From the IMG/VR virus record IMGVR_UViG_2778260992_000001: 64,000 bases of DNA. One strand, given 5' to 3'. The notes under the pieces were generated by a model, which was given only the letters and a program-made list of their open reading frames with translations, was not told where the DNA came from and made no database searches. The stretch comes from a virus (taxonomy: Duplodnaviria; Heunggongvirae; Uroviricota; Caudoviricetes). Below are positions 3,383-62,000 of the stretch, piece by piece. How positions within the stretch are numbered: position 1 is the first letter of the stretch; every line of letters begins with the position of its first letter. The translations under genes and the position numbers were made by a program.

Positions 3383-4483
3383 TCACACTGCGCGGAATGC
3401 GATTTCGCCAGGTATTACTTCACCTTGCCAATACATTTGGGCAGCAACGCGATCTGCGAGGTCACGATAAATAGCCGTAAATTCGCTATCTGGACGACTA
3501 ATAACGGTTGGTGTTCCGTTATCCAGATCTTCACGAAGAGAGATATGAAGTGGCATTTGGCCTAACAACTGCGTGTTGTATTTCTCGGCCAGTTTCTGTG
3601 CGCCACCGGTGCCAAAAATTGGCTCGTGATGACCGCAGTTACTGCAAATATGCACACTCATGTTTTCAACGATACCCAGTACCGGCACTTCGACTTTTTC
3701 GAACATCACAATGCCTTTCTTCGCATCGATCAGCGCGATGTCTTGCGGCGTAGTTACCACAACCGCACCAGTTACAGGAATGTTCTGCGCCAGCGTCAAC
3801 TGAATATCACCAGTGCCCGGCGGCATATCGAGAACGAGATAGTCCAGATCAGGCCACAGTGTTTCCTGCAACATCTGCATCAGCGCCTTGCTGGCCATCG
3901 GTCCACGCCACACCATTGCATTGTCGTCGGTGACCAGATAACCAATAGAGTTGGTTGCCAGGCCATGAGACATGATAGGTGCCATGTGAGTACCGTCAGG
4001 TGAGGTTGGACGTTGGTTTTCCGAGCCCAGCATGGTTGGAATTGATGGACCATAGATATCGGCATCCAAAATACCAACTTTCGCACCTTCAGCAGCCAAC
4101 GCCAGTGCCAGGTTTACCGCCGTGGAGGATTTACCCACGCCGCCCTTGCCTGAGCTGACGGCGATAATGTTCTTCACGCCATTAATGCCTGGTTGGTTTT
4201 TGACGCGCTTAAGCGTGGCAATGTTGTACGACAGCTTCCAGTCAATAGCCTTTGCGCCAGTGATACGGAGCAGATCACCACTACATTGCTCTTTCAGGTC
4301 TTCAAAAGGCTTATTCCACACGAAAGGCATGATTAGTTCGACATGCAGTGTGTCATCCATCAACGCAACATGGTGTAACGCTTTAAGCGTAGTCAGGTTG
4401 TGTTTCAGGGTTGGGTGCTGAAAATTAGCCAGCGTACCGGCTACCATTGCTCTCAGGGCATCCGGCGATTTGGACTCGCTCAT
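3383..4483 (-). CDS. apbC: iron-sulfur cluster carrier ATPase ApbC/Mrp
   Basis: Walker A GKGGVGKSS, C-terminal CSNCGHHEP motif; near-identical to E. coli Mrp as recalled; divergent from metG. Confidence 0.92.
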   Translation of the reverse strand: MSESKSPDALRAMVAGTLANFQHPTLKHNLTTLKALHHVALMDDTLHVELIMPFVWNKPFEDLKEQCSGDLLRITGAKAIDWKLSYNIATLKRVKNQPGINGVKNIIAVSSGKGGVGKSSTAVNLALALAAEGAKVGILDADIYGPSIPTMLGSENQRPTSPDGTHMAPIMSHGLATNSIGYLVTDDNAMVWRGPMASKALMQMLQETLWPDLDYLVLDMPPGTGDIQLTLAQNIPVTGAVVVTTPQDIALIDAKKGIVMFEKVEVPVLGIVENMSVHICSNCGHHEPIFGTGGAQKLAEKYNTQLLGQMPLHISLREDLDNGTPTVISRPDSEFTAIYRDLADRVAAQMYWQGEVIPGEIAFRAV

Positions 4484-4640
4484 CCCGTCTCCTTTATTTT
4501 AATTTGCGCAATTGTCGCCTTGTAGTGTACTCCAGCTACGACATTTAATCATTTATGAGAAATGCTGTTATCACATGGCAGACATAAGGCCATTTTGTTA
4601 CTATCAAGCCCCTTTTCACTACAAAGAAGTAATGCCTACT

Positions 4641-6674
4641 ATGACCCAAGTCGCGAAGAAAATTCTGGTGACGTGCGCGCTGCCGTACGCTAACGGCTCA
4701 ATCCACCTCGGCCATATGCTGGAGCACATCCAGGCTGATGTCTGGGTTCGTTACCAGCGAATGCGCGGCCACGAGGTTAATTTCATCTGTGCCGACGATG
4801 CCCACGGTACGCCGATCATGCTGAAAGCACAGCAGCTTGGTATCACACCGGAACAGATGATTGGCGAAATGAGTCAGGAACACCAGACTGATTTTGCAGG
4901 CTTTAACATCAGCTATGACAACTATCACTCGACGCACAGCGAAGAGAACCGTCAGTTGTCCGAGCTTATCTATACTCGCCTGAAAGAGAACGGTTTTATT
5001 AAAAACCGCACCATCTCTCAGCTGTACGATCCGGAAAAAGGCATGTTCCTGCCGGACCGTTTTGTGAAAGGCACCTGCCCGAAATGTAAAGCACCGGATC
5101 AATACGGCGATAACTGTGAAGTCTGCGGCGCTACTTACAGCCCGACTGAACTGATCGAGCCGAAATCGGTAGTTTCTGGTGCTACGCCGGTAATGCGTGA
5201 TTCCGAACACTTCTTCTTTGATCTGCCTTCTTTCAGCGAAATGTTGCAGGCATGGACCCGCAGCGGTGCGTTGCAGGAGCAGGTGGCAAACAAAATGCAG
5301 GAGTGGTTTGAATCTGGCCTGCAACAGTGGGATATCTCCCGCGATGCGCCGTACTTCGGTTTTGAAATTCCGAACGCACCGGGCAAATATTTCTACGTCT
5401 GGCTGGACGCGCCGATTGGCTACATGGGTTCCTTCAAGAATCTGTGCGACAAACGCGGCGACACTACCAGCTTCGACGAATACTGGAAGAAAGACTCCAC
5501 CGCCGAGCTGTACCACTTCATCGGTAAAGATATCGTTTACTTCCACAGCCTGTTCTGGCCTGCCATGCTGGAAGGCAGCAATTTCCGCAAGCCGACCAAC
5601 CTGTTTGTTCATGGCTATGTGACGGTGAACGGTGCGAAGATGTCCAAGTCTCGCGGCACCTTTATTAAAGCCAGCACCTGGCTGAATCATTTTGACGCTG
5701 ACAGCCTGCGTTACTACTACACTGCGAAACTCTCTTCGCGCATTGATGATATCGATCTCAACCTGGAGGATTTCGTTCAGCGCGTGAATGCCGATATCGT
5801 GAACAAAGTGGTTAACCTGGCCTCCCGTAATGCAGGCTTTATCAACAAGCGTTTTGACGGCGTGCTGGCAAGCGAACTGGCTGACCCGCAACTGTACAAA
5901 ACCTTTACTGATGCTGCTGAAGTGATTGGTGAAGCATGGGAAAGCCGCGAATTTGGTAAAGCGATTCGTGAAATCATGGCGCTGGCTGATCTGGCTAACC
6001 GCTATGTCGATGAACAGGCTCCGTGGGTGGTGGCGAAGCAGGAAGGGCGCGATGCCGATCTGCAGGCGATTTGCTCTATGGGCATTAACCTGTTCCGCGT
6101 GCTGATGACGTACCTGAAACCGGTACTGCCGAAACTGACTGAACGTGCAGAAGCATTCCTGAATACAGAACTGACCTGGGATGGTATCCAGCAACCGCTG
6201 CTGGGCCATAAAGTGAATCCGTTCAAGGCACTGTATAACCGCATCGACATGAAGCAGGTTGAAGCACTGGTGGAAGCATCCAAAGAGGAAGTAAAAGCCG
6301 CTGCCGCGCCAGTAACTGGCCCACTGGCAGATGATCCGATTCAGGAAACCATCACCTTTGACGACTTCGCCAAAGTTGACCTGCGCGTGGCTCTGATTGA
6401 AAACGCGGAGTTTGTCGAAGGTTCTGACAAACTGCTTCGCCTGACGCTGGATCTCGGTGGCGAAAAACGTAATGTCTTCTCCGGCATTCGTTCCGCTTAT
6501 CCAGATCCACAGGCACTGATTGGTCGTCACACCATTATGGTGGCCAACCTGGCTCCGCGTAAAATGCGCTTCGGTATCTCCGAAGGCATGGTGATGGCTG
6601 CTGGCCCCGGCGGGAAAGATATCTTCCTGTTAAGCCCGGATGCTGGTGCTAAACCAGGCCACCAGGTTAAGTAA
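4641..6674 (+). CDS. metG: methionine--tRNA ligase
   Basis: 677 aa from ATG at 4641 (track start 4512 is TTG); HIGH-like ANGSIHLGH and KMSKS motifs; matches E. coli MetG as recalled. Confidence 0.95.
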
Positions 6675-7509: not shown

Positions 7510-8079
7510 ATGGATGTGATGGAAACCCAGAACCAACAAACAAAACCTCTGAATAACATTTATGCGTGGATTCTAGCGTTCATGCCTTTCTTCTTTGGAG
7601 TATTGCCGGAAGAGTATACCAATTACGCTATTATAATTGGGGGTGTAACTACCATCGGTTTGTTAGTAGCTGACAGAATGGCTCTATCGGAGTCTGGCTG
7701 TGAACCACCTTCAATTCTATGGGGGGTATTCCTCCTGCCTGTCTATCTCTGGAAGCGCGCGACTATTACAAAAGGCAGCAGAGTGCCATTTATCATAATC
7801 GTTGCGTCGCTGGCTTGGATTATCTTCATCGGCATCCCACACAAGGACGAGGTTGCTCTTGAAGAAGCAGCCTGCCCTCTCGTGACAACTATTCTGAAAG
7901 AGAATAACGGTTCGACTGCACCAAAATGTATGAAGGTGACAATAGAGGACAAGGTGACGGATAAGTTCTATAGAGCAACGGCTACACTAGACAATGGTAA
8001 TGACATTAACATTACTCTGGAACTTACCGGTGACAGGAACTTCTACGTCCGTGTTCCAAATGTTTATCTGAACAACTAA
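7510..8079 (+). CDS. hypothetical integral membrane protein
   Basis: Several hydrophobic helices in translation (AWILAFMPFFFGVL, FIIIVASLAWIIFIGI). Confidence 0.5.
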   Translation: MDVMETQNQQTKPLNNIYAWILAFMPFFFGVLPEEYTNYAIIIGGVTTIGLLVADRMALSESGCEPPSILWGVFLLPVYLWKRATITKGSRVPFIIIVASLAWIIFIGIPHKDEVALEEAACPLVTTILKENNGSTAPKCMKVTIEDKVTDKFYRATATLDNGNDINITLELTGDRNFYVRVPNVYLNN

Positions 8080-8225
8080 CGGTTGCAACTTATTGATAAT
8101 GGCGGTCACAATTTGATTCTTTTCTATAAGAATCCGTTGATCGCCACTACTCCCCTTCCATACCTGCAATCATACCCTTAAATATCAATAGGTTATGGTT
8201 GTTTATACAAATAAGAAAACAACTA

Positions 8226-8945
8226 AATAACAGATCAACGAAACGTCAACGCTTTCACCCGATTTGGTCTAAAAAATTGACGTTTTCACACATCACTTCT
8301 TATACCCGTAACTCTACGCAGCAGACAGCGCCACAGCGTCCAATTTTCACCACAGACGACCCAACACACTACCAACAAAAACACACGCTCAAAATCGCTC
8401 CCGTTGCGTTACGCAACCATATAAACAACTTATTTTCAGGCATAACAAAACAACTAAATAACACACATGCCATTCCCAAAAACAACCAACCTCTTTATGG
8501 CAGGCTACCGAAAAGACCCACCTCTTCTCCCCAGGCTACCGGACAACCAACCTAACTTTCACAGGCAATCCGAAAACATTCATACGCGCGATACCCACGA
8601 CACGCCATTACCCAAACAGCGAAGAAATACCAGACTCACTGAAACCCCAACGAAGCCTGTTACCGCAAGGATTCTCTCAATCCCAAAAGACACGAAACAG
8701 AACAATCACGGGAAACGCCATTACCCAATACACGAATAACTACAAAAGCCTTTCAGGCACTCCAGACAAACAACTCAAACACAATAACGAAAGCAATCGC
8801 CCACCTGCCATTACTCCATACACGGAGAAGAACAATCACCAAAACGACGAGAACACCCCATAGAAGAACCACCGCAAAACGAACGAAACCACATACACCG
8901 ACAGAGAAAACAACACACCCAATTCACCAACAGAAATAGTCGCCG
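8226..8945. other. noncoding A+C-rich (G-poor) strand-skewed region
   Basis: About 0.7 kb without credible ORF; plus strand dominated by CAAC/ACAA/AAC runs. Confidence 0.55.
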
Positions 8946-9140
8946 TATAGGACATTCTGGAAGGAGTGAGCATTAACGCCTATAGAGAGGTTGAGACAGA
9001 TAAAACACAACATGTATAGCGAAGAAGCCAGGTATGTATAAGTGGGGATGGAAGGAGGGGTGTCGCCTCCTTTTTCGTATTTATTCAACTCCTGATTTTA
9101 TCCCCCGTAACACCCCTACGGTCAGCCTTCGGTCCATACA

Positions 9141-9271
9141 GGGGAAAGGCTGCATCCCGCTACAGAAACGGCTGGGTTGCCTTTGGGAACGGCTGGAGGT
9201 TTTCAGGGAAACGGTCGAGTTGCCTGTGTGGATTTCGGGAAAAGGCTCGATGCCGGTTCAGGAACGGTGGC
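9141..9271. repeat. iteron array 1: six GRAAACGGC-like repeats at about 21-bp spacing
   Basis: Copies starting near 9144, 9164, 9187, 9208, 9239, 9261 in a G-rich noncoding stretch. Confidence 0.6.
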
Positions 9272-9600
9272 GTACCGGTATAGCGAGAGGGAGAGTTGCG
9301 GCTACCCACCTGTAATGTGCGGGAAGAAGAGAGGCGCTCACGTAGGCGGACTTGCTTACCGCTGGATTCCCTCTGAATGCCCAGCTACAGCGTAATTGTG
9401 CCAGACAGCCAACGGGTCACAATCGATTTCAGTAGGTTTTTGGGGAGAGGATTACTCTGCCACCAGCCACTTTCGGCCACTAAATCAGAATAATGTAAAA
9501 AGTGTACTCGGTACTGAACCTGAAAACTCACTGCCAAAACCACATTCACCGGAACAAAATCCTTTTTCGCCTGTGCGTTATTGCGATAATAACACCATCA

Positions 9601-9617
9601 AGAAAACATGTTGTTTA
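9601..9617. promoter_or_regulatory. class-1 palindrome
   Basis: AGAAAACATGTTGTTTA; the track ATG at 9608 lies inside it. Confidence 0.55.
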
Positions 9618-9628
9618 AGGATTGCTTT

Positions 9629-9958
9629 ATGTTTACAAATATCGACATCAACCAAATCAAGAAATTAACTCAAAAAGAGTTTGATCAGTTTTATGAGTTA
9701 GAAGGTTGGTCTTCCACTCTGATCAATTCAAGATGGGTGCTGGAACTGATGACTCGTGATGACGCACCTGCTTTGATGATCAGCGACCTGGGTGAAGATG
9801 CTGACTTTATGGATATGAGCGAATTTTGTGTGGACACATACAACCGCAGCCAGAAGTACTACTTCACATGCGATAGCGAAAATGACGTGATTTCTAAGGT
9901 CTATCTTCACCTCGTCCAGCATTGGGACGTTCAGGAGTTTCTTGAAGTATTCGAGTAA
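9629..9958 (+). CDS. acidic small early protein (hypothetical)
   Basis: ATG at 9629 after AAGGA; product strongly acidic (about 22 D/E vs 8 K/R). Confidence 0.5.
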   Translation: MFTNIDINQIKKLTQKEFDQFYELEGWSSTLINSRWVLELMTRDDAPALMISDLGEDADFMDMSEFCVDTYNRSQKYYFTCDSENDVISKVYLHLVQHWDVQEFLEVFE

Positions 9959-9967
9959 CCCCAACCA

Positions 9968-9990
9968 AAGCCAGCATTGCTGGCTTAATT
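9968..9990 (+). terminator. hairpin AAGCCAGCATTGCTGGCTT
   Basis: Perfect stem immediately after stop. Confidence 0.5.
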
Positions 9991-10083
9991 TCTCTATAGC
10001 CGCAGGGAAGAACCTGCATATAGCTCATGCACCTGATCAATATGCTTTGTAGCCGTTTTCTTACTGGTATTATTTACGCCATT

Positions 10084-10111: not shown

Positions 10112-10423
10112 ATGAAAAAATCATTGGTTCTTGGTCTGGACAAAGACCAGAAGAGAAAAGAGAAGCCTGCGCTGGTTGCTCAATTAACTTTGCTGGACAT
10201 CGTTGCCAATGGAACCTCTATTCGTCTGTTCCGTGAAACAGCGGTGTCTTTCGATAAAAACACCTTTACTCGTTATGTAATGAATGTTCGTCGCCAGCGT
10301 GGAAAAGGCTGGGTGGCATTTCAAAGAATGTGGCCGGAACATCAGCTCGAACTGGCTTTGATGGAAGTTAACCGCGTGGCCCAGCAAGAGATTCAGAGAG
10401 CATCAGTGATGGCAATAGCCTGA
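10112..10423 (+). CDS. hypothetical basic small protein
   Basis: ATG at 10112 after ACGGAG; in frame with track ORF 10082. Confidence 0.5.
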   Translation: MKKSLVLGLDKDQKRKEKPALVAQLTLLDIVANGTSIRLFRETAVSFDKNTFTRYVMNVRRQRGKGWVAFQRMWPEHQLELALMEVNRVAQQEIQRASVMAIA

Positions 10424-11612: not shown

Positions 11613-11737
11613 AAATGACTTTTAATAACCGAAGGTTAGTTTGAAACCTGGCTATCAACTTCCATAACCTTTCTTGTGTATTCAGCCTGTATTAACTTCT
11701 TTTATGCCTTATCTACACTGCGATAATTACACCAACA

Positions 11738-11754
11738 AGAAAACAACATGTTTA
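11738..11754. promoter_or_regulatory. class-1 palindrome
   Basis: AGAAAACAACATGTTTA preceded by shared CGATAATTACACCAACA box. Confidence 0.55.
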
Positions 11755-11772
11755 CGCAGTTAGGATATGCTC

Positions 11773-12054
11773 ATGACTGATTTCACCATTACCCCTAAAG
11801 CACAAAATGTATTTCTTGAATCATGGCTGGACTTGCCGGAAACAGAACAGCAAGAAATGGATCATGTGGATTATGACGAGCAGGTAAGCACGCGATTCTT
11901 CCACTTTGAGGGATGCGTTTACGACATTGTCGACTTCATGCGAGATGACCGCTTCCCTGAATGGCACGCAAGCTATCCACTAAACGCCTTTGCCATGCTG
12001 ATGATCCGTGTGGATGATTCAGGGGATACCATCGACATCGGTCTGCTCCACTAA
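11773..12054 (+). CDS. acidic small early protein (hypothetical)
   Basis: ATG at 11773 after AGGA; about 19 D/E vs 4 K/R. Confidence 0.5.
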   Translation: MTDFTITPKAQNVFLESWLDLPETEQQEMDHVDYDEQVSTRFFHFEGCVYDIVDFMRDDRFPEWHASYPLNAFAMLMIRVDDSGDTIDIGLLH

Positions 12055-12258: not shown

Positions 12259-12741
12259 ATGAATTTTATCGCTACTGTAAACGCACCCGCACATGGCAAT
12301 ATCGCTGTAACGTTCTCTGACATTGAAAAACGAGTACTTGGTGCATGGCGCGACAATGAGACGGTAGAACTGTCAGCACAAGAAAAATGCATTATTGCAC
12401 GCGACATCATTGGCAATCGTCGTTACTCGCGGGTATTTGAAAAAGCGTATGTGGTAAATTCTGGATTCGGAACGTTCGTCTTTCCGGTGCGCTCCGGGCG
12501 ATTCTGCCAGTCCAAGCTGATTGAGTTCGCTACGCAGATTTCTGTCTGGATTAAAACTCAATCGTCGTTCAAATTTTCCGACGATGAAGCAGTATCGCAG
12601 GGGATGCGGATCGCCAACAATGCAATTAAATGCAAAAACATTACGTATACCGCTGGCGTTGATACATGGAAACTGTTTTGCGCTAACTTTATGCTGAATG
12701 TATACGCAAGCAACCGCATCCACATCCTTGATGGCGTGTAA
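12259..12741 (+). CDS. hypothetical protein
   Basis: ATG after TAAGGAATT; last rightward early gene. Confidence 0.5.
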   Translation: MNFIATVNAPAHGNIAVTFSDIEKRVLGAWRDNETVELSAQEKCIIARDIIGNRRYSRVFEKAYVVNSGFGTFVFPVRSGRFCQSKLIEFATQISVWIKTQSSFKFSDDEAVSQGMRIANNAIKCKNITYTAGVDTWKLFCANFMLNVYASNRIHILDGV

Positions 12742-12748
12742 CTGAGAA

Positions 12749-12772
12749 GAGGGCCAGAAACGGCCCTTTCTC
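12749..12772 (+). terminator. rho-independent terminator
   Basis: GGGCC-AGAAAC-GGCCC plus TTTCTCT. Confidence 0.6.
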
Positions 12773-12790
12773 TATAGCCACCAGCTGCCG

Positions 12791-12909
12791 CAGGGAAATT
12801 TTCAGAAACGGCGAGGAACGTATTCATGAGCCGACGGGAAACGGCCAGGATTTTTTCGGGAAACGGCTGCATTCGCCTTTATGTAGAAAAAACATCGGGA
12901 AGCTGGTGG
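12791..12909. repeat. iteron array 2: GGAAACGGC-like repeats
   Basis: Strong copies near 12805, 12839, 12861 plus degenerate ones; convergent intergenic region. Confidence 0.55.
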
Positions 12910-13287
12910 AATCCAACCAGCGGTTGTCGGACAGGTGAGCGGGGAAAATTATGATGACTTTCGTCACCTGAGACATCCAGATTTCTTTCGTAGCATAATC
13001 ACATACGTGATTAAGTGGTGTGATTATGTGAAAAATCACGCGCACATAATACGCGAGCGGATACAGAACAAAACAAAATGCCGATCCGCACCGACAAATA
13101 AACGCGGATCACATAGCAAGACTAAAAGCCAATGATTAACCATACTCTATAGCGCAATATAACGCGTTTTAAGCGCGTTAATGTGTTAAGTAATGGGTAT
13201 GTACTGGCAAGGATATAAAAGCGCGTCTATGGCGTTATTTTGGTGCTTATTTTTATGTTGTTGGAGTGAGTTAAAGACAATAAAAAA

Positions 13288-13310
13288 CGCGCCATTGATG
13301 GCGCGTTATT
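13288..13310 (-). terminator. rho-independent terminator (minus strand)
   Basis: GCGCCATTGATGGCGC hairpin with T6 on minus strand. Confidence 0.6.
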
Positions 13311-13330
13311 GTGGAAGTATTGGAAACGAA

Positions 13331-13350
13331 AAAAGCGCCCATAGTGGGCG
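13331..13350 (-). terminator. rho-independent terminator (minus strand), GCGCCCATAGTGGGCGC
   Basis: Hairpin plus T-run on minus strand, just past stop of ORF 13358..13588; identical hairpin at 13831. Confidence 0.65.
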
Positions 13351-13860: not shown

Positions 13861-14511
13861 TTACGCTTTGAAAGCATCAGCTAAATAATTGTAGAAATCA
13901 TTTTTAATGAAGCGATATTGCTGAGTACCAGCTTTCGCGCTCCCAGCTCCTTTGACTTTTTCAACAAGTCCAAGACGTTCGCAAAGATTGATCAACTGGT
14001 TGGCTTGAGTATAACCAGCGTCCAATTTAATTTCACACGCTTTTTTAGCTTCATTCATTAAATCGAAAACAGCGCCATTAGTGAACGTGTCGATCTCGTC
14101 GTTAATCATATCGATTAAAGCGAATACACGAGATCCAGACATATCAGCGATGGAATAAACGCATTTACCAGATTTAATTGATTTAACCAGATAAACCAGT
14201 TTTTCCAGAGAATAACTATTAGTCATTGCATCACGGAAAAATACTTCTGGCGCTTGTTTGCTTGCTTTAATCGCATAGTAGAAAACAGAGCATAATTTTT
14301 CGTCTTCTACTGCGTTTACGACGTTGTTGATGAAGTAAGCAAGTTTAGTGGTCGCAGCTTGCATATTTGCTTTGTCTGCTTTAGTGTGCGTACCATTTTT
14401 ATAATGTTCGTTATATGTTTGAGTTGCCAGATCTGCTTTTTCGCGCAGTTCATCGGATACAATGGAAGCAGCTTCAATGATGGATTTTTTAGAAATGATA
14501 ATGTTAGCCAT
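13861..14511 (-). CDS. hypothetical protein, possible winged-helix C-terminus
   Basis: 216 aa; C-terminal LINLCERLGLVEK..QQYRF resembles a winged-helix DNA-binding segment (weak); monocistronic, AT-rich. Confidence 0.45.
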   Translation of the reverse strand: MANIIISKKSIIEAASIVSDELREKADLATQTYNEHYKNGTHTKADKANMQAATTKLAYFINNVVNAVEDEKLCSVFYYAIKASKQAPEVFFRDAMTNSYSLEKLVYLVKSIKSGKCVYSIADMSGSRVFALIDMINDEIDTFTNGAVFDLMNEAKKACEIKLDAGYTQANQLINLCERLGLVEKVKGAGSAKAGTQQYRFIKNDFYNYLADAFKA

Positions 14512-15106: not shown

Positions 15107-15631
15107 TCAAAAAGGCAAAATTCGTTCAACCCAATCGAACAAAACAACTATTTTTCTACCGTTCTCGACACGTAGTGTAACCTGACAAGCATCTGCGCCT
15201 GCTGACACCCCCTCAATTTCACGGCCATCCGCCATGTACACCCTTATAGATTTGTTTGCTTTGTAGGCTTGGTTGCAAATTGCAAAAAAATCGCGGCGTG
15301 ATGGCCGATTATCGACATAATCAGGGTGAACTGTTAGTCGACCTTTGAAATCGTGAGCGATACTGTCAACCACACCTGATTCAATTGTACTAATGCGTTC
15401 AAGTGGGAGCCTTATACGATTTTCTTTGTCAAAAGGGGCTGGGCAAAGGTCAACTTTGTTACGAGATGGCATGAGGCCATAAACGTACATGCAAAACGCC
15501 TGGCCATCTTCGAGAGTGACCCTTACAGGAATTTGTTCTCTGCGCCAGAACATCAGTAGTTTTTCAACGTTAGTGTAATCTCGCGGCCAGAGTTCAGCTT
15601 GGATACCGTAGGTAATATCTTTGGTTGTCAT
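15107..15631 (-). CDS. hypothetical protein
   Basis: Track ORF 15107..15709 trimmed to internal Met (MTTKDITYG) to avoid overlap with the lipoprotein gene. Confidence 0.45.
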   Translation of the reverse strand: MTTKDITYGIQAELWPRDYTNVEKLLMFWRREQIPVRVTLEDGQAFCMYVYGLMPSRNKVDLCPAPFDKENRIRLPLERISTIESGVVDSIAHDFKGRLTVHPDYVDNRPSRRDFFAICNQAYKANKSIRVYMADGREIEGVSAGADACQVTLRVENGRKIVVLFDWVERILPF

Positions 15632-15635
15632 GTCA

Positions 15636-16058
15636 TCACAGAGTTGTTGGCAGAATGTCGATGTCACCAGAATTGCTGGTGAACACCCTGAACGCTTTTG
15701 TGTCTCCATTCTTCAGAGTCGTTTCTCGCTCTTGACGAGCGGGGTTTAGAGCACATAAACCTGCACCTTCAAGAGATGCACCCACAATTAATTCTCCGGC
15801 ATTTAAATGAAAAGTCGCTTTTTCGCCTGTAGCCAGTTTTGCGACAGTTTCGCCATTGATGAAAATGGAAGCATCACATCCAGCTCCTACAAAACCTGTG
15901 TCTCTCATTACCACCAACGTAGCTGGCGCTGCGCTTTGATACTTGAACACTTTGGCCTGCGGTGCTGGTTTGGCGTCATGGATTGATATTGGACGTGATT
16001 GGCACGCGGTAAGCATCAACACTGGTAACGTTAGTAGAGGGAGAAGCGAGTATTTCAT
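15636..16058 (-). CDS. putative lipoprotein
   Basis: Signal peptide with lipobox LTAC (MKYSLLPLLTLPVLMLTAC); start moved to this Met. Confidence 0.55.
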   Translation of the reverse strand: MKYSLLPLLTLPVLMLTACQSRPISIHDAKPAPQAKVFKYQSAAPATLVVMRDTGFVGAGCDASIFINGETVAKLATGEKATFHLNAGELIVGASLEGAGLCALNPARQERETTLKNGDTKAFRVFTSNSGDIDILPTTL

Positions 16059-18010: not shown

Positions 18011-18032
18011 TAATAAGTAAGTGATTACTTAG
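18011..18032. promoter_or_regulatory. class-2 element TAAGTAAGT..TTACTTA
   Basis: TAATAAGTAAGTGATTACTTAG in divergent region between helicase and ParB-like genes. Confidence 0.5.
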
Positions 18033-18049
18033 TGGATTGTAGCAATAAA

Positions 18050-18730
18050 ATGGATGTAAAAATCACGATTTTGCAGGTTGATGTTGCCAACCTTCGCCCG
18101 AATACCTGGAACACCAATTCGGTTGGTGCGCAGAATTTTGAAAAACTGAAAGGTTCTATCGAAAAATTGGGCTTTTTTAAGCCAATTTTGGCTCGTGAAC
18201 TTGAAGATGGATTTTTTGAAATCCTCGGCGGTGAACATCGCTGGCGTGCTGCTATTGAGCAAGGAATTTCAACGGTTCCGGTGCTTTCTGTGGGCAAAAT
18301 TAGCGATGTCGTAGCTAAACAGATGTCACTGGTGGACAACGAGCGATACGGTGAAGACGACCAAATCGCATTGCAACGCTTCATTGAAGAAATTCAGTCA
18401 GAACTTGACTATCAACTGTTTGAAATCGCTCCGTATGACGACGAAATCTCGATGGTTTTAGCAAAAGAGGCGGCAATCGACCTTGAAGCACTGGAGGCGT
18501 TGTCTCGTGGTAGTGATGAGCCTGTCGATACCGACAAACGAGAGAAAACCGAACGTGTGGGTGCGGAACATCAGACCATGCGCTTCAAAGTAACTTTCGA
18601 TGCGTCAGATCGTGTTGCAGAAACCATAAAAAACATCATCAAAGAGCAGGCTATTAACACCGGTAATGAAATGGAGAACGCTGGTGAGGCTCTGGTGTGG
18701 CTGGTCGACTACTACAAGGAGCGTATGTAA
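18050..18730 (+). CDS. ParB/Srx-fold N-terminal domain protein 1
   Basis: GGEHRWRAA arginine-rich motif resembling ParB GERRxRAA box; start moved to ATG 18050. Confidence 0.6.
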   Translation: MDVKITILQVDVANLRPNTWNTNSVGAQNFEKLKGSIEKLGFFKPILARELEDGFFEILGGEHRWRAAIEQGISTVPVLSVGKISDVVAKQMSLVDNERYGEDDQIALQRFIEEIQSELDYQLFEIAPYDDEISMVLAKEAAIDLEALEALSRGSDEPVDTDKREKTERVGAEHQTMRFKVTFDASDRVAETIKNIIKEQAINTGNEMENAGEALVWLVDYYKERM

Positions 18731-19398
18731 TGACCAAAAAGTTTGAAATCGTATATCGCGACCCGGCAGATCTTATTCCCTATGAGATGAATGCCAAAAA
18801 GCATGATGAACAGCAGATCAGAGATCTGGCCGCAGCCATTAAAAAGCGCGGATTTGACCAGCCAATTACGGTCGATAAGAACGACGTAATTATTACTGGC
18901 CACGGCCGCCGTGAGGCTGCAATTTTTGCTGGACTTGAGCGCGTACCGGTTATTGTTCGCGATGATCTCAGTGATGACGAGGTTCGTGCGAAGCGCCTTG
19001 AAGATAACCGACTTGCCAGCATTGATTACGATGCAATTAAGCTACAGAAAGAGCTTGAGTCGCTTGTTCTGGACGATATCGAGGTTTTCGGCTTTGAAGA
19101 GCGTGAGTTGAATGTTCTCGTTGGCAGTATGACAGAAGAAATGGACACCGACTCGCTAGTTATCGATCTTGGCGAAGAAACTAAACGACAGAAGGATGAA
19201 CACACCGAGATCAGTCGTGAAGTTGCAGCGGAAGAAGTACGTGTTGTCGACGTATTGGGCTTTAAAACGCTCCCTGCTGGCTCTGCCATTGTTGTTGGTG
19301 ATTTGCTTGCCCATATGGAAGAAATGACGGGAGAAAGCGGGGTAGACGCATTTGTGGCATATGCGGAGAAGATCTCTTCCGGGGAGATGGCTGCATGA
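18730..19398 (+). CDS. ParB/Srx-fold N-terminal domain protein 2
   Basis: TGHGRREAA motif; start ATG overlaps previous stop (TAATG). Confidence 0.55.
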   Translation: MTKKFEIVYRDPADLIPYEMNAKKHDEQQIRDLAAAIKKRGFDQPITVDKNDVIITGHGRREAAIFAGLERVPVIVRDDLSDDEVRAKRLEDNRLASIDYDAIKLQKELESLVLDDIEVFGFEERELNVLVGSMTEEMDTDSLVIDLGEETKRQKDEHTEISREVAAEEVRVVDVLGFKTLPAGSAIVVGDLLAHMEEMTGESGVDAFVAYAEKISSGEMAA

Positions 19399-21418: not shown

Positions 21419-22051
21419 ATGACGGTCGAAAAAGACGAGGTAAAAACTCGCCTGACACCAGCGGAGTGGGCCGAAGCTGAAGCCAAATGGACGTCAGGCG
21501 AATATACACTCTCAAAGCTGGAGGAAGAGTACGGCATTCGTCGTGAAACACTCTCCAGACATTTCAAAAAGCGAGGATTAGAGAAAGGCGCGGACTCTGT
21601 TGGGAAGATGGTTCGTGAGTCTCTTAAATCTGACGCAGAGCTTCGCGCTAAAGCCCGTGCGGAAAAGATAGAAGAACGTCGTACACGTTATGACGGCTGG
21701 GCGTATGCGTTGGGGCAGATGGTGATGGTCGAAGTCACTACGGCCAAACGTGAGGGTAAGCCTTTAGGGGCGATTGAGGATTCTCTCAAGAGCTTACAGA
21801 GAGCCAGTAATACCCTTGCAAAATGCTTTGAAGTTTCGTCCAAAGCATTGGGCATGGATCATGCGGAAAATGACGAGGAAGAAATTCCGAACCTGGTATT
21901 TGGTGAGCTTACGCCTTCCCAGGTGGCGAAATTACGTCAGGAAGACGACGAGCCTGAAATCATCGATGACGAATTGCTTGAGACGTTGGAAGAAGAAGCT
22001 CTAAGCGAATTTGATGCGACAGATGATGGAAGTGAAGGGGAGGACGAATAA
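21419..22051 (+). CDS. terminase small subunit (putative)
   Basis: N-terminal HTH-like segment, acidic C-terminus, immediately upstream of and overlapping terminase large subunit. Confidence 0.6.
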   Translation: MTVEKDEVKTRLTPAEWAEAEAKWTSGEYTLSKLEEEYGIRRETLSRHFKKRGLEKGADSVGKMVRESLKSDAELRAKARAEKIEERRTRYDGWAYALGQMVMVEVTTAKREGKPLGAIEDSLKSLQRASNTLAKCFEVSSKALGMDHAENDEEEIPNLVFGELTPSQVAKLRQEDDEPEIIDDELLETLEEEALSEFDATDDGSEGEDE

Positions 22052-23307
22052 TGGCAATCCCGTCCTCGCTCAGTCTTGTGCAACTGCATTCTGGACAGAT
22101 GAAAGTCTTCCAGTCTCCGCATCGATTTAAAGTTGTTTGTGCTGGTCGACGCTGGGGAAAATCCCGGTTGTCGATCTCCACTATTATTCGTGCGGCGGCA
22201 AAGGAAAAAAAGCAAAGGGTCTGGTATGTCGCTCCTACATACCAGATGGCTCGCCAGATTTTGTGGGACGATCTACAGGAAGTTCTGCCTCGTAAGTGGG
22301 TTAGGAAAAAGAACGACACCACGATGACAATCGTGTTGAAGAACGGTTCGGAGATCGCCCTCAAAGGTGCTGATAAGCCTGACACTCTGCGCGGCGTAGC
22401 GTTGCATTTTGTAGTGCTTGATGAATTTCAGGATATGAAGGCTGACACCTGGTACAAGGTGTTACGACCTACTCTTTCATCGACACGCGGCGGTGCACTG
22501 ATCATTGGTACGCCAAAAGGCTTCTCGGAATTTCACAAACTGTGGACTATAGGCCAGAACGTAGAGCTGCAAAGAAAGGGACAGTGGAAGAGCTGGCAGT
22601 TTGTAACTGCCGATTCTCCGTTTGTACCTACGGCGGAAATTGAAGCTGCTAAGAACGATATGGACCCGAAATCGTTCGCTCAGGAGTACCTGGCGAGCTT
22701 TGAGAACATGTCCGGGCGCGTTTACTACCCGTTCGATCGTAACGTGCATGTAAAACCGCTTCAGTTCAACCCTCGGTTGCCTATATGGGTAGGGCAGGAC
22801 TTCAACATTGACCCGATGTCTTCAGTAATTTTGCAACCTCAGCCAAATGGTGAGCTATGGGCAATTGATGAATTGGTGCTCTTTTCCTCTAACACGGCAG
22901 AGGTTTGTGATGAGCTTGAGAGACGCTTCTGGCGCTGGAAATCACAGATAACGGTATTTCCAGATCCGGCAGGTGCTTATCGCCAACATGCTCGCGGGGA
23001 GTCTGACGTCGACATATTCAAAGAGAAGGGATTCTTACGTGTCGATTATTCGAAAAAGCACCCGCCAATTGCGGATCGTGTTAATGCTGTTAACCGAATG
23101 CTGATGACCGCATCTGGAGATATCCGGCTGTATATCGATCCGAAGTGCAAGCATTTGATTGATTCACTGGAAAAAGTCATCTACAAGCCTGGAACACGAG
23201 ATATGGATAAGACAGGTGGCATTGAGCATAGTGCAGACGCATTGGGCTATCCAGTACATCGTAGGTATCCAGTCAAAAACCGTGTTATTCTTGGTGGTTC
23301 TCGATAG
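22051..23307 (+). CDS. terminase large subunit
   Basis: Walker A-like CAGRRWGKS, Walker B VVLDEF, C-terminal nuclease-like region; followed by portal. Confidence 0.85.
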   Translation: MAIPSSLSLVQLHSGQMKVFQSPHRFKVVCAGRRWGKSRLSISTIIRAAAKEKKQRVWYVAPTYQMARQILWDDLQEVLPRKWVRKKNDTTMTIVLKNGSEIALKGADKPDTLRGVALHFVVLDEFQDMKADTWYKVLRPTLSSTRGGALIIGTPKGFSEFHKLWTIGQNVELQRKGQWKSWQFVTADSPFVPTAEIEAAKNDMDPKSFAQEYLASFENMSGRVYYPFDRNVHVKPLQFNPRLPIWVGQDFNIDPMSSVILQPQPNGELWAIDELVLFSSNTAEVCDELERRFWRWKSQITVFPDPAGAYRQHARGESDVDIFKEKGFLRVDYSKKHPPIADRVNAVNRMLMTASGDIRLYIDPKCKHLIDSLEKVIYKPGTRDMDKTGGIEHSADALGYPVHRRYPVKNRVILGGSR

Positions 23308-43788: not shown

Positions 43789-46700
43789 ATGTGGTACAGG
43801 GAAGGTACTATCACATTTACACAGGGTAGCAATACTCTGGTTGGGGCAGGGACAGCCTGGAACGTAACAGCTAATGGTGTGTTGCCTGGGATGATCGTCA
43901 TTGGCCCCGACAACAAGCTGTATGAGATCAAGCGCGTAACCAGTGATACGAACATTGTTCTCTCAGAACCTTATACCGGCGAAACTCAGTCTGAAGTTCC
44001 GTGCCGAATCATTACGACCTATGAAGGCGACTTAACACAGTTTAGCGCGCGCTTTACTGCACTAATGTCGCGTATGTCGGCTGATTCAAAGTCCATGCGC
44101 AGTTGGTTGACTGCTCTGGATGAGGTGACAATCGAGCGTGAAGACGGTACAGAAGTGACCGTTAAGCCGCTAATGCAGATCGTCAACGAGCACAACGAAA
44201 ACGTTGAGTGGTATAAAAATAACACTGACGCGATTGATGCTGCTGGCGACAAAGCTCGTGAGGCGGCGGCCAGTGCTGCCGCAGCAGCAGAAAGCGCCAA
44301 TACCGCTGGAGAAAAAGCCTCTCAAGCGTCTCAAAGTGCATCCGCTGCGGCATCCTCACAAAGTGCTGCAAGTGCGAGCGCAACTGCTGCGAAAAAATCT
44401 GAAACGAACGCACAAGCCGCAAAAGAAGCGGCAGCAGAATCAGCATCTGTAGCGTCGGCCAAAGCATCGGAGGCAGCAACATCTGCGTCCAGTGCCTCTG
44501 CATCTAAGGATGCAGCCAAAGCATCAGAGACTAACGCTTCATCGAGCGCAAACGCGGCAGCATCATCGGCAACAGAAGCTGCAAATTCGTCTAAGGCAGC
44601 AAAAACGTCAGAGGCAAACGCAAAAGCATCTGAAACGGCAGCCGAACAGAGTGCATCGTCTGCAAACAGTTCGAAATCTGCGGCAGAAGCGTCAGCAAGC
44701 GCAGCCTCAGCAAGTGCGGATAGTGCTTCATCAAGTGCAACAGCGGCAGGAAAATCTGCGGATAGCGCATTGTCATCAGCGACAACAGCTACCACAAAAG
44801 CGACAGAGGCGACGAGTCAGGCTACAGCTGCTAAAAATTCAGCATCTGCAGCAAAAACCTCTGAAACAAATGCAAAGACTTCAGAAGACAATGCTGCTTC
44901 CTCTAAGGCGGCAGCTGCTGAATCTGCAAGTTCTGCGTCTGCATCAGCCTCCTCAGCATCCGCTTCAAAAGATGAGGCTACCAAGCAGGCATCAGAAGCG
45001 AAGGGCAGTGCTTCAACGGCATCCACGAAAGCAACAGAGGCGGCAGGCAGTGCGACGGCTGCATCTCAGAGCAAAACTGCTGCTGAATCCGCTGCGACCC
45101 GTGCGGAAGCTGCTGCTGATCGTGCTGAAGAGATTGCCGGTGCGGTTGCGATGGAAGACGCAAGCCTTACAACTAAAGGTGTTGTGAAACTTAGCAGTGC
45201 TGTCGATAGCACCAGTGAATCGCTGGCCGCAACGCCAAAAGCAGTTAAAGCAGCCAATGACAATGCGAATAGCAGGGTGCCATCTAACCGAAAAATTAAC
45301 GGAAAAGCACTGACTGCGGATATAACATTAACGCCGAAAGATATTGGTACTTTAAATTCAGTAACGATGTCTTTCTCTGGCGGGGCTGGGTGGTTCAAAC
45401 TGGCTACGGTTACCATGCCACAAGCGAGTTCCATCGTTTACATCACATTGATTGGTGGTGCTGGATATAATGTTAACTCCCCTATGCAGGCTGGTATATC
45501 TGAACTTGTTCTTCGTGCGGGAAATGGAAATCCAAAAGGTCTTACTGGTGCGTTATGGCGAAGGACATCGGTTGGATTTACTAATTTTGCATGGGTGAAT
45601 ACATCCGGCGATACATATGATATTTATGTTGAGATTGGCAATTATGCGACGAGTGTAAATGTCCACTGGGATTGTACTGCAAATGCGTCAGTTTCTATTT
45701 ATACATCGCCAACATATTCAGCGAGTAAGCCTGCCAGCGTTACCGATGGTGTTGTTTATACGATGTATAGCTCACATCAGAAACCTACGCCATCAGATAT
45801 TGGAGCACTGCCAACAACCGGAGGAACAGTTTCTGGTCCGTTGTCTGTTACAGGCGGATTAACTGGTTCATTGAATGGTAATGCAAGTACAGCAACGAAA
45901 TTACAGACGACAAGAACTATCGGTGGAGTTGGTTTCGACGGTTCTGCCAATATTAATCTTCCAGGTGTAAACACTACGGGTAATCAGAACACCACTGGTA
46001 ATGCCGCAACTGCTACAAAACTACAGACGGCAAGAACTATCGGCGGCGTGAGCTTTGATGGTACTGCAAATATTAATTTGCCAGGTGTTAATACGACTGG
46101 TAATCAGAATACAACAGGTAATGCGGCTACTGCTACGAAGTTGCAGACTGCGCGTACTATTAATGGGGTGTCGTTTGACGGTTCGGCAAATATTTCCTTG
46201 TCACCAGCAAATATAGGTTGCCCGGCATCTCCTACTGGTTGGTTAACTACAGGAAGTAATGGCGGAGCAATAACAACAGCCCAGTTAGTGACGTTATTGC
46301 AAAATAATGGAGCCTTTAACACAAAGGCATGGATTGCTCGATGTGCGTGGGCCTATGCCAATAGCGCAACCATACCAAATAGTGAAACTGGTTGTGGCGT
46401 TATTCCATTGGCAGGAGCTGTTATAGAAGTATTTAATAACGGTAGTAGTTCAAATAATTATACGATCCGCATAACAACGGCCACAACGACAAGTGTTTCC
46501 GGTGCTCTCACTAATGCGGAGTTTATCTATGTATTTAATGGCACAGATTATTCTCCAGGATGGCGAAGAGTATATAACACGAAAAACAAACCAACTGCAT
46601 CTGACGTTGGTGCATTACCTCTTACCGGTGGTACATTATCTGGAGGTTTGACATCTTCTGGTGAGATCGTTTCAAAATATGCAAATGGTTTCCGCATTGC

Positions 46701-47817
46701 TTACGGTAGCTTTGGGTTCTTTATCCGTAATGACGGCGGCAGCACATATTTCATGCTAACAGCATCAGGAGATACGTTAGGTTCATGGAACGGCTTGCGA
46801 CCGATTACAATTAATAATACTAGCGGTGTTGTGTCTATTGGTAATGGACTAAATGTTACTGGTGGCGTAAATGGTAGTTTGAACGGTAATGCTTCAACAG
46901 CTACGAAGTTGCAAACAGCGAGAAACATCAATGGTGTTAAGTTTGATGGCTCAGGCGATATCAACATTAATACATTGGTATCTCGTGGCCGAGTTACGGC
47001 GTTAAGCGGCTCTACTCAAGGCACTGCTGGCATTCAAATGTACGAGGCGTACAACAATAGCTATCCGACCACGTATGGCAACGTATTGCACATGAAAGGT
47101 GCGAGTGCTGCTGGCGAGGGTGAGTTGCTTATTGGCTGGAGTGGTACGAGCGGTGCACATGCGCCGGTTTTCATTCGCTCCCGAAGAGATACCACTGATG
47201 CAGCATGGTCAGCGTGGGCACAGGTATATACCGCTAAGGATTCAATCCCTGGTGTGAATACAACCGGTAATCAGAACACTACTGGTAATGCTGCCACCGC
47301 CACAAAATTGCAGACAGCAAGGAAAATTGCTGGTGTGGCGTTTGATGGCTCTGCCGATATTACTTTGACTGCGGCTAACCTTAATGCCTATACGAAAACA
47401 GAGGTAACAAACCTTCTAAGTTCCTATGTGAAGAGCAGTTCTCTTCCAAGCATGACTGTGCGAACTTCCTCTGTTTCAGGTGGGGATATGGGCATGAGTT
47501 TGTCCGCATTCATTAGCCACCTTAAATCAAATGGGGCGTTTAGCAAAAGTTATTGGATTGGCTTTGGCGATGCTATGGGATTCAATGCTGGCAGTATCAA
47601 CAATATAACGGGATTTGGTGCTGTAGAATTAGCAGAATCCATAATCGAAGTTTTTAATCTACCTAATGGTGATTATACAATTCGTTTAACGACGTCACAC
47701 AAAGCTGACTACGGTGGGATTACAAACGCAATCCTCGTTTATCACTACCGCAGTAATAGAAACCCGGCAGGTCAATGGCTTAAATTTGCCGGTACTCTTG
47801 GGGCTACAAACAACTGA
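43789..47817 (+). CDS. side tail fibre protein
   Basis: 1342 aa; Ala/Ser-rich low-complexity region, repeated GNQNTTGNAATATKLQTARTIGGVSFDG units, distinct C-terminal domain. Confidence 0.8.
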   Translation: MWYREGTITFTQGSNTLVGAGTAWNVTANGVLPGMIVIGPDNKLYEIKRVTSDTNIVLSEPYTGETQSEVPCRIITTYEGDLTQFSARFTALMSRMSADSKSMRSWLTALDEVTIEREDGTEVTVKPLMQIVNEHNENVEWYKNNTDAIDAAGDKAREAAASAAAAAESANTAGEKASQASQSASAAASSQSAASASATAAKKSETNAQAAKEAAAESASVASAKASEAATSASSASASKDAAKASETNASSSANAAASSATEAANSSKAAKTSEANAKASETAAEQSASSANSSKSAAEASASAASASADSASSSATAAGKSADSALSSATTATTKATEATSQATAAKNSASAAKTSETNAKTSEDNAASSKAAAAESASSASASASSASASKDEATKQASEAKGSASTASTKATEAAGSATAASQSKTAAESAATRAEAAADRAEEIAGAVAMEDASLTTKGVVKLSSAVDSTSESLAATPKAVKAANDNANSRVPSNRKINGKALTADITLTPKDIGTLNSVTMSFSGGAGWFKLATVTMPQASSIVYITLIGGAGYNVNSPMQAGISELVLRAGNGNPKGLTGALWRRTSVGFTNFAWVNTSGDTYDIYVEIGNYATSVNVHWDCTANASVSIYTSPTYSASKPASVTDGVVYTMYSSHQKPTPSDIGALPTTGGTVSGPLSVTGGLTGSLNGNASTATKLQTTRTIGGVGFDGSANINLPGVNTTGNQNTTGNAATATKLQTARTIGGVSFDGTANINLPGVNTTGNQNTTGNAATATKLQTARTINGVSFDGSANISLSPANIGCPASPTGWLTTGSNGGAITTAQLVTLLQNNGAFNTKAWIARCAWAYANSATIPNSETGCGVIPLAGAVIEVFNNGSSSNNYTIRITTATTTSVSGALTNAEFIYVFNGTDYSPGWRRVYNTKNKPTASDVGALPLTGGTLSGGLTSSGEIVSKYANGFRIAYGSFGFFIRNDGGSTYFMLTASGDTLGSWNGLRPITINNTSGVVSIGNGLNVTGGVNGSLNGNASTATKLQTARNINGVKFDGSGDININTLVSRGRVTALSGSTQGTAGIQMYEAYNNSYPTTYGNVLHMKGASAAGEGELLIGWSGTSGAHAPVFIRSRRDTTDAAWSAWAQVYTAKDSIPGVNTTGNQNTTGNAATATKLQTARKIAGVAFDGSADITLTAANLNAYTKTEVTNLLSSYVKSSSLPSMTVRTSSVSGGDMGMSLSAFISHLKSNGAFSKSYWIGFGDAMGFNAGSINNITGFGAVELAESIIEVFNLPNGDYTIRLTTSHKADYGGITNAILVYHYRSNRNPAGQWLKFAGTLGATNN
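44220..45160 (+). repeat. Ala/Ser/Thr/Lys/Glu low-complexity coding region in tail fibre
   Basis: GCN-rich codon repeats; spawns spurious ORFs in other frames. Confidence 0.75.
45870..46200 (+). repeat. tandem tail-fibre repeat units (coding), further copies near 46875 and 47250
   Basis: Three consecutive copies of about 120 nt with near-identical protein sequence. Confidence 0.75.
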
Positions 47818-50959: not shown

Positions 50960-51628
50960 ATGACCAAGATCTTTGTGGTTGGCGGCACAAAGGGCGGGCC
51001 TGGCAAATCCACCGTTGCCCAGCAAATTGCCGTTTGCCTGAAAGTCAAAAAGAAGAAGAAGGTTTATATCACTGATATAGATATTCAGCGCACGACAACA
51101 AGCTGGTGTGAAGACCGTCGACAGAACGAAGACCTTGAGCTGATTCCTTTTGCATACGTTCAGGATGACATCATTAAGCACCTAAAATCGCTTCAGGGTA
51201 GAGCTGAGTTTGTAGTGGTAGATGCTGGTGGCTTTGACTCCGAAATTCAGCGACAAGCGATGCTGATGGCCGACGTTATCATTATCCCGCTGCGTCCTAA
51301 GCGTCGTGATTTGAAATCTTTACGTGACATCGATCCTATTATCGACAATGTTCGTAATGTAAACGATAAAGTGAAGGTCCGCGCGGTCATGAACCAGTGC
51401 CCGGCTTTGCCATCACAAGTGTCTCGCATTTTGGCGGCTAAAGAGATTGTCGAGACGTTTGGCATCGAGTCTGCGCCAGTCAATTTATATAACCGCAACG
51501 TCTATGATGATGCGGAAGAGTCTGGTCGTTCTATCTTTGAAATGACCGGTAGCGAGCGCGACAAAAAGGCGGAAGCCGAGTTTGAAGAATTTGTAGATTA
51601 TCTGTTGAGTCTGGAGGAAGAAGAATAA
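50960..51628 (+). CDS. ParA/MinD-family partition ATPase
   Basis: Deviant Walker A GGTKGGPGKST; 222 aa; followed by small overlapping gene. Confidence 0.8.
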   Translation: MTKIFVVGGTKGGPGKSTVAQQIAVCLKVKKKKKVYITDIDIQRTTTSWCEDRRQNEDLELIPFAYVQDDIIKHLKSLQGRAEFVVVDAGGFDSEIQRQAMLMADVIIIPLRPKRRDLKSLRDIDPIIDNVRNVNDKVKVRAVMNQCPALPSQVSRILAAKEIVETFGIESAPVNLYNRNVYDDAEESGRSIFEMTGSERDKKAEAEFEEFVDYLLSLEEEE

Positions 51629-52918: not shown

Positions 52919-52973
52919 CCTGCTTCTGTATATATTTAATAAGTTACTTATTATTTATATATACAGAAGCAGG
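52919..52973. repeat. 55-bp near-palindromic element, copy B (inverted copy of A)
   Basis: CCTGCTTCTGTATATATTTAATAAGTTACTTATTATTTATATATACAGAAGCAGG. Confidence 0.8.
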
Positions 52974-53080: not shown

Positions 53081-53091
53081 AGGTGAGCCAC

Positions 53092-61753: not shown

Positions 61754-61828
61754 GATGGTGTAGCTCAGCGGTAGAGCAGTTGGCTGTTAACCAACTGGTC
61801 GGTGGTTCGAATCCACCCACCATCGCCA
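61754..61828 (+). tRNA. tRNA-Asn (GUU)
   Basis: Manual cloverleaf: 7-bp acceptor GATGGTG/CACCATC, anticodon loop CTGTTAA, T-loop GGTTCGAATCC, 3' CCA; differs from E. coli tRNA-Asn. Confidence 0.8.
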
Positions 61829-61833
61829 ATTTA

Positions 61834-61920
61834 GGGGAGTTAGTCCGTAGAGGTAGCGGTGTAGACTGTAAATCTACTGTCATGGCGACTCGGGTGGTTC
61901 GACTCCATCACTCCCCACCA
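61834..61920 (+). tRNA. tRNA-Tyr (GUA), class II
   Basis: Acceptor GGGGAGT/ACTCCCC, anticodon stem-loop GTAGA-CTGTAAA-TCTAC, long variable arm, 3' CCA. Confidence 0.75.
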
Positions 61921-61924
61921 AATT

Positions 61925-62000
61925 GCCGGTTTAGCTCAGTTGGTAGAGCAGTCGCTTTGTAAGCGAATGGCCAGCGGTTCGAGTCCGTTAACCGGCACCA
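61925..62000 (+). tRNA. tRNA-Thr (UGU)
   Basis: Acceptor GCCGGTT/AACCGGC, D-arm GCTC..GAGC, anticodon loop TTTGTAA, T-loop TTCGAGT, CCA; one G-A mismatch at top of anticodon stem. Confidence 0.65.

Follow-up and report, generated by a model that had tools for sequence, protein, structure and literature searches.

Iteron-like direct-repeat arrays, distinct from the repA iterons, around an early gene cassette of an SSU5/pHCM2-type phage-plasmid

Six short direct repeats lie in a G-rich stretch (positions 9141-9271) of a viral DNA of 64,000 nucleotides, referred to below as the window, meaning the whole stretch that was analysed. What are they for? The original prediction took them for binding sites of a replication initiator or a partition protein. 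Our analysis upholds the part of that idea that concerns the repeats themselves, which are conserved, non-coding and phased, whereas neither the role as replication iterons nor that in partition gained support.

Positions 8000-10000 of the window share 92-98% identity with Escherichia phages CMS-2020a, Cyrano (pLF82) and PhiR41_1, and are partly similar to Salmonella phage SSU5. Because of these matches we assign the window, on sequence, to the SSU5/pHCM2-type phage-plasmids of E. coli. Phage-plasmids of the SSU5/pHCM2/pKPHS1 type occur commonly in clinical E. coli, Klebsiella, Enterobacter, Salmonella and Cronobacter, and the region of the array matches 711-718 plasmid records from Klebsiella, Escherichia, Enterobacter, Salmonella, Citrobacter, Cronobacter and others. 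A common module, consisting of a 1.4-kb gene-free region and two matching arrays around an early gene cassette, is carried by more than 700 plasmid records; no published description of the arrays was found in the literature that could be searched.

Array 1 and its gene-free module

The features of the module in the window are as follows.

8200..8950, + strand: AC-rich, G-poor non-coding tract, directly upstream; 750 nt; A.40, C.32, G.13, T.16
9037..9135, + strand: leader block 5' of array 1, sequence conserved across clades
9141..9271, + strand: array 1, six units nGGGAAAMGG(C); 7-mer cores at 9143, 9165, 9186, 9208, 9239 and 9261
9276..9289, + strand: 3' boundary block, conserved CGGTATAG(C/A)GAGAG

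In array 1 the 7-mer G[AG]AA[AC]GG (G-R-A-A-M-G-G) occurs six times on the + strand, at intervals of 22, 21, 22, 31 and 22 nt, so that the six repeats originally described at ~21-bp periodicity are confirmed, with a period of ~21-22 nt and one three-turn interval. Their core is GGAAACGGC-like, as had been proposed, but not exactly GGAAACGGC; the observed core is GGGAAAMGG(C), and the fuller unit consensus, nGGGAAAMGGCnG, holds little information outside ~12 nt. The 7-mer matches 26 times on both strands of the 64-kb window, and 10 of the 26 matches fall within two clusters. In first-order Markov simulations (n=300) the largest 7-mer cluster within 130 nt held 1-3 copies and never six, and with the local G-rich composition at least three matches per 131 nt appeared in 3 of 20,000 simulations; both sets of simulations rule out a chance origin of the six-copy cluster. 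TRF does not report array 1 as a tandem repeat, because the spacers are too divergent. The stretch is indeed G-rich (G 0.35, C 0.24); its surroundings have a GC content of 0.51-0.59, and the sole nearby AT-rich stretch measures ~30 bp (9070-9100). The array also lies, as first noted, far from both the terminase (22051-23307) and the ParA-like gene (50960-51628).

The leader block contains TATAAG, a purine-rich stretch with a hairpin at 9050-9076 that resembles a terminator only in this clade, as well as ATTCAA...ATCCCCCGTAAC and, at 9105-9121, a possible CCGTA/TACGG hairpin. The AC-rich tract lacks 3-nt periodicity, and its composition recurs in 14 loci that represent all clades. Together with array 1 it forms one conserved module of ~1.4 kb, which is gene-free in pHCM2 and in RefSeq plasmid annotations; some phage records annotate the tract as a hypothetical CDS.

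SSU5, pHCM2, Klebsiella pJN2-26 and ~100 IMG/VR loci all have array 1. It was present in loci sampled from all sequence clades, with three to six units and its spacing kept in SSU5, pHCM2 and the Klebsiella, Enterobacter and Cronobacter elements, and the second array described below was present in several of the loci as well. Among 78 distinct arrays (253 intervals), 165 intervals measured 22 nt and only 7 measured 21 or 23 nt; the others included 31 nt (28 intervals), 33/34 nt (30), 44 nt (6) and 48 nt (14). The 31-nt interval has exactly this length in three clades in which its sequences differ. In 57 distinct units, drawn from the two arrays and every clade, the core G-R-A-A-M-G-G does not vary and keeps its register, and its flanks decay fast; at an overall identity down to ~70% across six genera, the spacers differ but neither the core nor the exact spacing is lost. 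Indels in array 1 of the relatives measure 22-24 nt (one unit) and also 9 nt, and units are gained or lost whole; therefore the region is not coding. A coding sequence is ruled out by these unit-sized and 9-nt indels together with the overlapping ORFs, which are frame-inconsistent hypotheticals without family matches. On the two points by which the original prediction could be judged, conservation in relatives and coding status, the arrays are thus kept across clades and the repeats are non-coding. The gene-free region and the two arrays rank with the best-conserved non-coding features that these elements have. Outside the SSU5-like family no array of the motif was found, the other IMG/VR matches to a two-unit pattern being chance matches or heptamer tandems.

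Upstream of the gene-free module the gene content varies, with metG, apbC and an invasin in E. coli and restriction systems in Klebsiella; both arrays lie at the border between this variable accessory region and the conserved core. The accessory genes of the window include an ApbC/Mrp-type Fe-S carrier (3383-4483, - strand), which is called 'MinD/ParA-like' in some annotations and is no partition ATPase, and a full-length methionyl-tRNA synthetase (4512-6674). Farther away, ~2.5 tandem copies of a 120-nt repeat (45877-46194) lie within a large tail-fibre-like ORF (43789-47817), and four tRNA genes (Asn-GTT, Tyr-GTA, Thr-TGT, Ser-TGA) are clustered at 61754-62311.

The second array and the early cassette

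A second cluster of the same motif lies 3.6 kb from the first, in the same orientation. The features at and near this end of the region are the following.

10112..10423, + strand: gene A, 103 aa, phrog_5125
12259..12741, + strand: gene B, 160 aa, phrog_1641; always the last gene before array 2
12752..12880, + strand: array 2, four units in the orientation of array 1; cores at 12757, 12805, 12838 and 12860
13861..14511, - strand: ORF of 216 aa, convergent on array 2; 73-88% identity across clades
15107-15709, - strand: full-length FljA-family gene; PF03614, E 2.5e-84; marginal Hfq-like match

Array 2 begins directly after the stop codon of gene B and contains exact copies of GGGAAACGG at 12836 and 12858. 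Its first unit is located within a terminator-like hairpin, in the loop and the 3' arm; between clades the stem of this hairpin shows covariation (GGGCC/GGCCC versus GGGGC/GCCCC), and GAAAC stays unchanged in the loop. The array is retained in Cyrano, pHCM2 and Klebsiella, Enterobacter and Cronobacter-type loci, with a spacing of 34 then 22 nt, or of 48, 33 then 22 nt. In Klebsiella it is followed by GTATAGAGGGAGA, which is similar to the boundary block of array 1. An exact Chi site (GCTGGTGG; ~2 expected by chance per window) is located just 3' of array 2 at 12891-12898 (+ strand). The non-coding stretch from array 2 to the convergent - strand genes (12990-13350) carries inverted repeats ATAATCACA/TGTGATTAT and GC hairpins, including the bidirectional terminator-like AAGCGCCCATAGTGGGCGCT; within it, TGTGATTATGTGAA is kept in Enterobacter and pHCM2 loci.

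The two arrays bracket a cassette of small early genes on the + strand (9.6-12.7 kb). Every one of these genes is equipped with an extended -10 promoter of its own and with a palindromic AAAACAnnnTGTTT element, and a terminator-like hairpin follows most of them. The promoter/operator-like module, found at ~6793, 9580, 10075, 10996, 11727 and 12210 before each small early gene, consists of an extended -10 (TGnGATAAT) followed by a AAGAAAACA-nnn-TGTTT palindrome just upstream of the ribosome-binding site, and the palindrome looks like a shared repressor operator.

Genes A and B are the only genes that are always found between the arrays, and in the shortest versions of the locus (L092 and L097) both arrays are kept with 1.5 kb between them that holds only homologues of these two genes. 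Because they always lie between both arrays, genes A and B are candidate binders of the repeats, by position only. Structure prediction gave no convincing DNA-binding fold for either. The convergent ORF 13861-14511 is likewise a positional candidate; its C-terminus resembles, by eye, a winged helix. This ORF had no Pfam, NCBIfam or PDB match, remote-homology searches found its family only in these elements, and none of the three products matched known DNA-binding families.

Replication and partition

The family's plasmid replicon is of a P1/RepFIB-like kind: it comprises DnaA boxes, five AGATCC repeats and repA, which is flanked by iterons on either side. In the loci that were examined (the NZ_CP117002.1 junction, L069 end plus L068 1-1650, and pKPHS1, L243 1-1700), the repA iterons read TATGCTGTCAGCGGT at ~21-nt spacing, with 14 copies in pKPHS1 and ~17 in NZ_CP117002.1. 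This replicon agrees with the predicted iterons reported downstream of repA in IncpKPHS1 plasmids (PMC6735626). It sits outside the 64-kb window, where the repA iteron TATGCTGTCAGCGGT (ATGCTGTCAGCGGT) has no match at up to two mismatches. The comparison with origin regions of relatives that had been proposed as a check therefore spoke against the prediction as far as the plasmid replicon is concerned: array 1 is ruled out as the RepA iterons of the plasmid, since the real ones lie elsewhere and differ in sequence. An easy mis-annotation is thereby corrected; the arrays are iteron-like in form and are not the element's iterons. In the PLSDB gene table, repA is not listed for the E. coli record.

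The likeness of form is extensive. Like iterons, array 1 has at least three direct repeats at ~22-bp periodicity, and the arrays share with P1/RepFIB-type iterons, including the repA iterons of the family, direct repeats at 21-22 bp, several of them in each array, genes between two arrays, and the gain and loss of whole units. They differ in sequence, in lacking an adjacent rep gene, DnaA boxes, GATC repeats and an AT-rich region, in conserving ~12 of 22 bp, and in bracketing a small-gene cassette rather than a rep gene. No Rep-family match (Pfam, PHROGs, NCBIfam) was found among the ORFs at 6.8-16.4 kb, and no extended AT-rich unwinding region adjoins array 1. A search for DnaA boxes at 9-13 kb with up to one mismatch returned only three one-mismatch boxes, at 11709-12017, none of them beside an array, and the window-wide count was at chance level.

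Could the arrays instead be origin-type iterons of a second, lytic replication system, serving as its origin or as copy-control (handcuffing) sites? The 22-bp period and the two separated arrays recall an iteron origin with a second control array, as at the repA locus of the element, and the conserved minimal module is just an array, two genes and an array. The element also encodes its own DnaB-like helicase and primase, and relatives annotate dnaE, rnhA and a DNA ligase; candidate initiators would be the 249-aa ORF at 53083-53832, or an unrecognised one among gene A, gene B and ORF 13861-14511. We nevertheless consider this unlikely, given arrays without a nearby DnaA-box cluster or adjoining unwinding region, adjacent ORFs without Rep-like family matches, and only ~12 of 22 bp conserved per unit against a near-invariant 14-bp core in the repA iterons. 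A better candidate lies 44 kb away, where a 55-bp AT-rich perfect palindrome (52919-52973, with 17-nt arms CCTGCTTCTGTATATAT / ATATATACAGAAGCAGG) is located directly upstream of the operon that comprises ORF 53083-53832 and the DnaB-like helicase/primase. This palindrome is a candidate second (lytic) origin or operator, and would be a more natural second origin than the arrays.

A partition centromere, whether of the ParA-like system (50960-51628 and a small downstream gene) or of a ParB-like protein, appears very unlikely. Centromeres are often arrays of short repeats, and sometimes flank an operon on both sides, as do parC1 and parC2 of pB171. Two ParB_N-domain genes (18032-19398) and a gene for an ABC-type ATPase lie 5-7 kb from the arrays. 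The core GGGAAAC reads as a hybrid between the half-site of ParB, GTGAAAC(A), and that of Noc, GGGAAAT(A), matching each at six of seven bases; the full sites are parS, TGTTTCAC-GTGAAACA, and NBS, TATTTCCC-GGGAAATA (PMC7383237). This half-site likeness is one among many motifs that were compared, and whereas ParB/Noc sites are 16-bp palindromes, the sites here are direct half-sites, whose left halves match the ideal inverted half, on inspection, at only 2-5 of 7 bases. The window yielded no ParB with a recognisable HTH: the ParB_N-domain proteins have acidic C-termini and no detectable HTH, so they do not fare well as the ParB-fold binders that had been suggested, and a ParB/Noc identity based on the half-sites was set aside. 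Neither a par operon nor any other Par-family gene was found adjoining array 1, and the ParA-like gene is 38-41 kb distant.

DNA sites or an RNA element

With moderate confidence, we favour the reading that the arrays are phased double-stranded DNA sites for a protein encoded by the element, the putative binder. Arrays 1 and 2 would each present asymmetric protein-binding sites of ~12 bp at intervals of about two helical turns, occasionally three or four; since the sites are about two turns apart, the bound proteins would all be on roughly one face of the helix, which would permit cooperative head-to-tail binding. Their likeliest job would be regulatory or architectural, with two nucleoprotein complexes bounding the early region, or pairing so as to loop it out, for instance to keep it silent during the plasmid life of the element. 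Positional candidates for the binder would be gene A (10112-10423), gene B (12259-12741) and ORF 13861-14511. From the fixed spacing, the whole-unit indels, the pairing of the arrays, their silence in lysogens and the lack of RNA signals we infer action at the level of DNA; exact spacer lengths of 22 or 31 nt that are kept despite sequence divergence are what a helical-phasing constraint on DNA would give.

Such sites have a precedent in phage lysogeny control. The O1/O2 operators of the P2 C repressor and those of HP1 CI are short, asymmetric direct repeats two helical turns apart (~22 bp centre to centre) that are bound cooperatively; they comprise 2-3 sites and overlap a promoter. The arrays share the site architecture, the spacing and the phage lysogeny setting, and differ in having 4-6 sites, in the lack of a detected promoter and in being two arrays 3.6 kb apart. 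A likeness to integrase arm-type sites, or to the AP2-like beta-sheet DNA-binding domains, amounted to a weak structural match that is shared with unrelated folds and had no sequence support; the integrase lies ~50 kb from the arrays in the close relative NZ_CP117002.1. If the arrays dock a silencing or boundary protein, they would offer a handle on the switch between plasmid life and phage growth, and a simple target for curing or incompatibility experiments.

Several observations sit less well with DNA sites. Family searches of genes A, B and ORF 13861-14511 tied no DNA-binding protein to the motif, and helical phase is not kept by the 48-nt interval of array 2. Every unit has the potential for a short CGG/CCG-type hairpin, compensatory-looking changes occur in a few places (CGGT/ACCG to CGGG/CCCG; AACGG/CCGTT), and two stems in the leader contain G-T wobbles that are workable on the + strand only. 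Terminator-like hairpins also immediately precede both arrays, which are oriented in the sense direction of their flanking genes, so that read-through RNA would carry them; the expression data come from lysogens. The compensatory-looking changes and the + strand wobbles keep an RNA role in the lytic cycle in play.

An RNA-level element, in which + strand transcripts of the arrays, from read-through or in the lytic cycle, would bind or titrate an RNA-binding protein through repeated single-stranded GGGAAA motifs between short GC hairpins, is in our view a tentative alternative and on balance doubtful. The FljA-family protein of the element would be its most interesting binder, and host CsrA another. 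GGA occurs in five of the six units of array 1, and CsrB/RsmZ sponge RNAs likewise carry GGA-containing motifs every ~20 nt between short hairpins. Unlike those RNAs, the arrays have no promoter/terminator frame and are poorly expressed in lysogens, their conserved core is GRAAMGG rather than GGA, which unit 2 (CAGAAACGG) lacks, and a search of array 1 against Rfam returned no match, with no Csr/Rsm family at E<=10. Fold z-scores are not unusual (-1.9 on the + strand, -0.3 on the - strand, +1.1 over 401 nt), the RNAalifold covariation term is +0.56 with 4 of 48 pairs compensatory, and swapping spacer arms between units did not weaken their pairing, 78 of 300 permutations doing as well as the cognate arms. 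A stable or covarying fold of array 1 was thus not found, and a 10-bp long-range pairing of 9131-9142 with 9225-9236, seen in the single-sequence fold, is absent from the SSU5 clade. No sigma-70-like promoter was found on either strand at 7900-9900, and in RNA-seq of the LF82 lysogen, which covers lysogenic and not lytic growth, expression is at the floor over the AC-rich tract and low over the array region (PMC9928086, supplementary table). As for a type III toxin-antitoxin (ToxI-like) array, the units share only ~12 of 22 nt, TRF reports no array and no ToxN-like gene lies downstream. The exact conservation of spacer length, too, is harder to explain for RNA than for phased DNA sites. That the repeats have no present function, being a tandem duplication in decay that travels with the conserved module, is highly improbable: the degenerate units and their number, varying from three to six, would fit, but core and exact spacing persist across six genera at ~70% identity, in two separate arrays, while the spacers diverge.

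The FljA lead deserves separate treatment. The gene, which belongs to the family of the phase-1 flagellin repressor, is found in every clade ~2.3 kb beyond array 2, and its conservation at full length suggests that SSU5/pHCM2-type phage-plasmids may shut off host flagellin. A passage of PMC2652032 that cites Bonifield & Hughes 2003 and Yamamoto & Kutsukake 2006 reports that FljA-type regulators keep fliC mRNA from being translated. The E. coli fliC leader and array 2 (window 12827-12842) have TGAGCCGACGGG..GAAAC in common. Against the whole window this match scores 25, within the null range of 23-37, and the 12-mer TGAGCCGACGGG is confined to the E. coli clade. Two of 15 leader-versus-array pairs stand out at a nominal p of ~0.01-0.02, the E. 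coli leader with the window element (score 25, reached by 10 of 500 shuffles) and the Salmonella/Citrobacter leader with the Cronobacter-type array (score 22, reached by 4 of 500), but neither survives correction for 15 tests, and the array of pHCM2, which comes from Salmonella, does not match the Salmonella fliC leader. Mimicry of the fliC leader as an operator is accordingly retained only within the more speculative reading that follows.

A broader form of this idea, in which the AC-rich tract and both arrays act as a lytic or read-through RNA that is a multi-site operator or decoy for the FljA-family protein, with units imitating the hairpin-plus-GGAAAC architecture of the fliC leader, and possibly engages host Hfq through the A/C-rich tract, seems quite unlikely. 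RNA from the tract would presumably be unstructured and A/C-rich, resembling a Rho or Hfq loading site. Were this reading true, flagellin repression by FljA would be an offshoot of an RNA-control circuit of phage-plasmids. The enterobacterial fliC 5' leader (loci L138-L242) itself contains a conserved pair of GC hairpins, the first stem of which covaries from genus to genus (CGGCG...GCCG versus ACGGTG...CACCGT).
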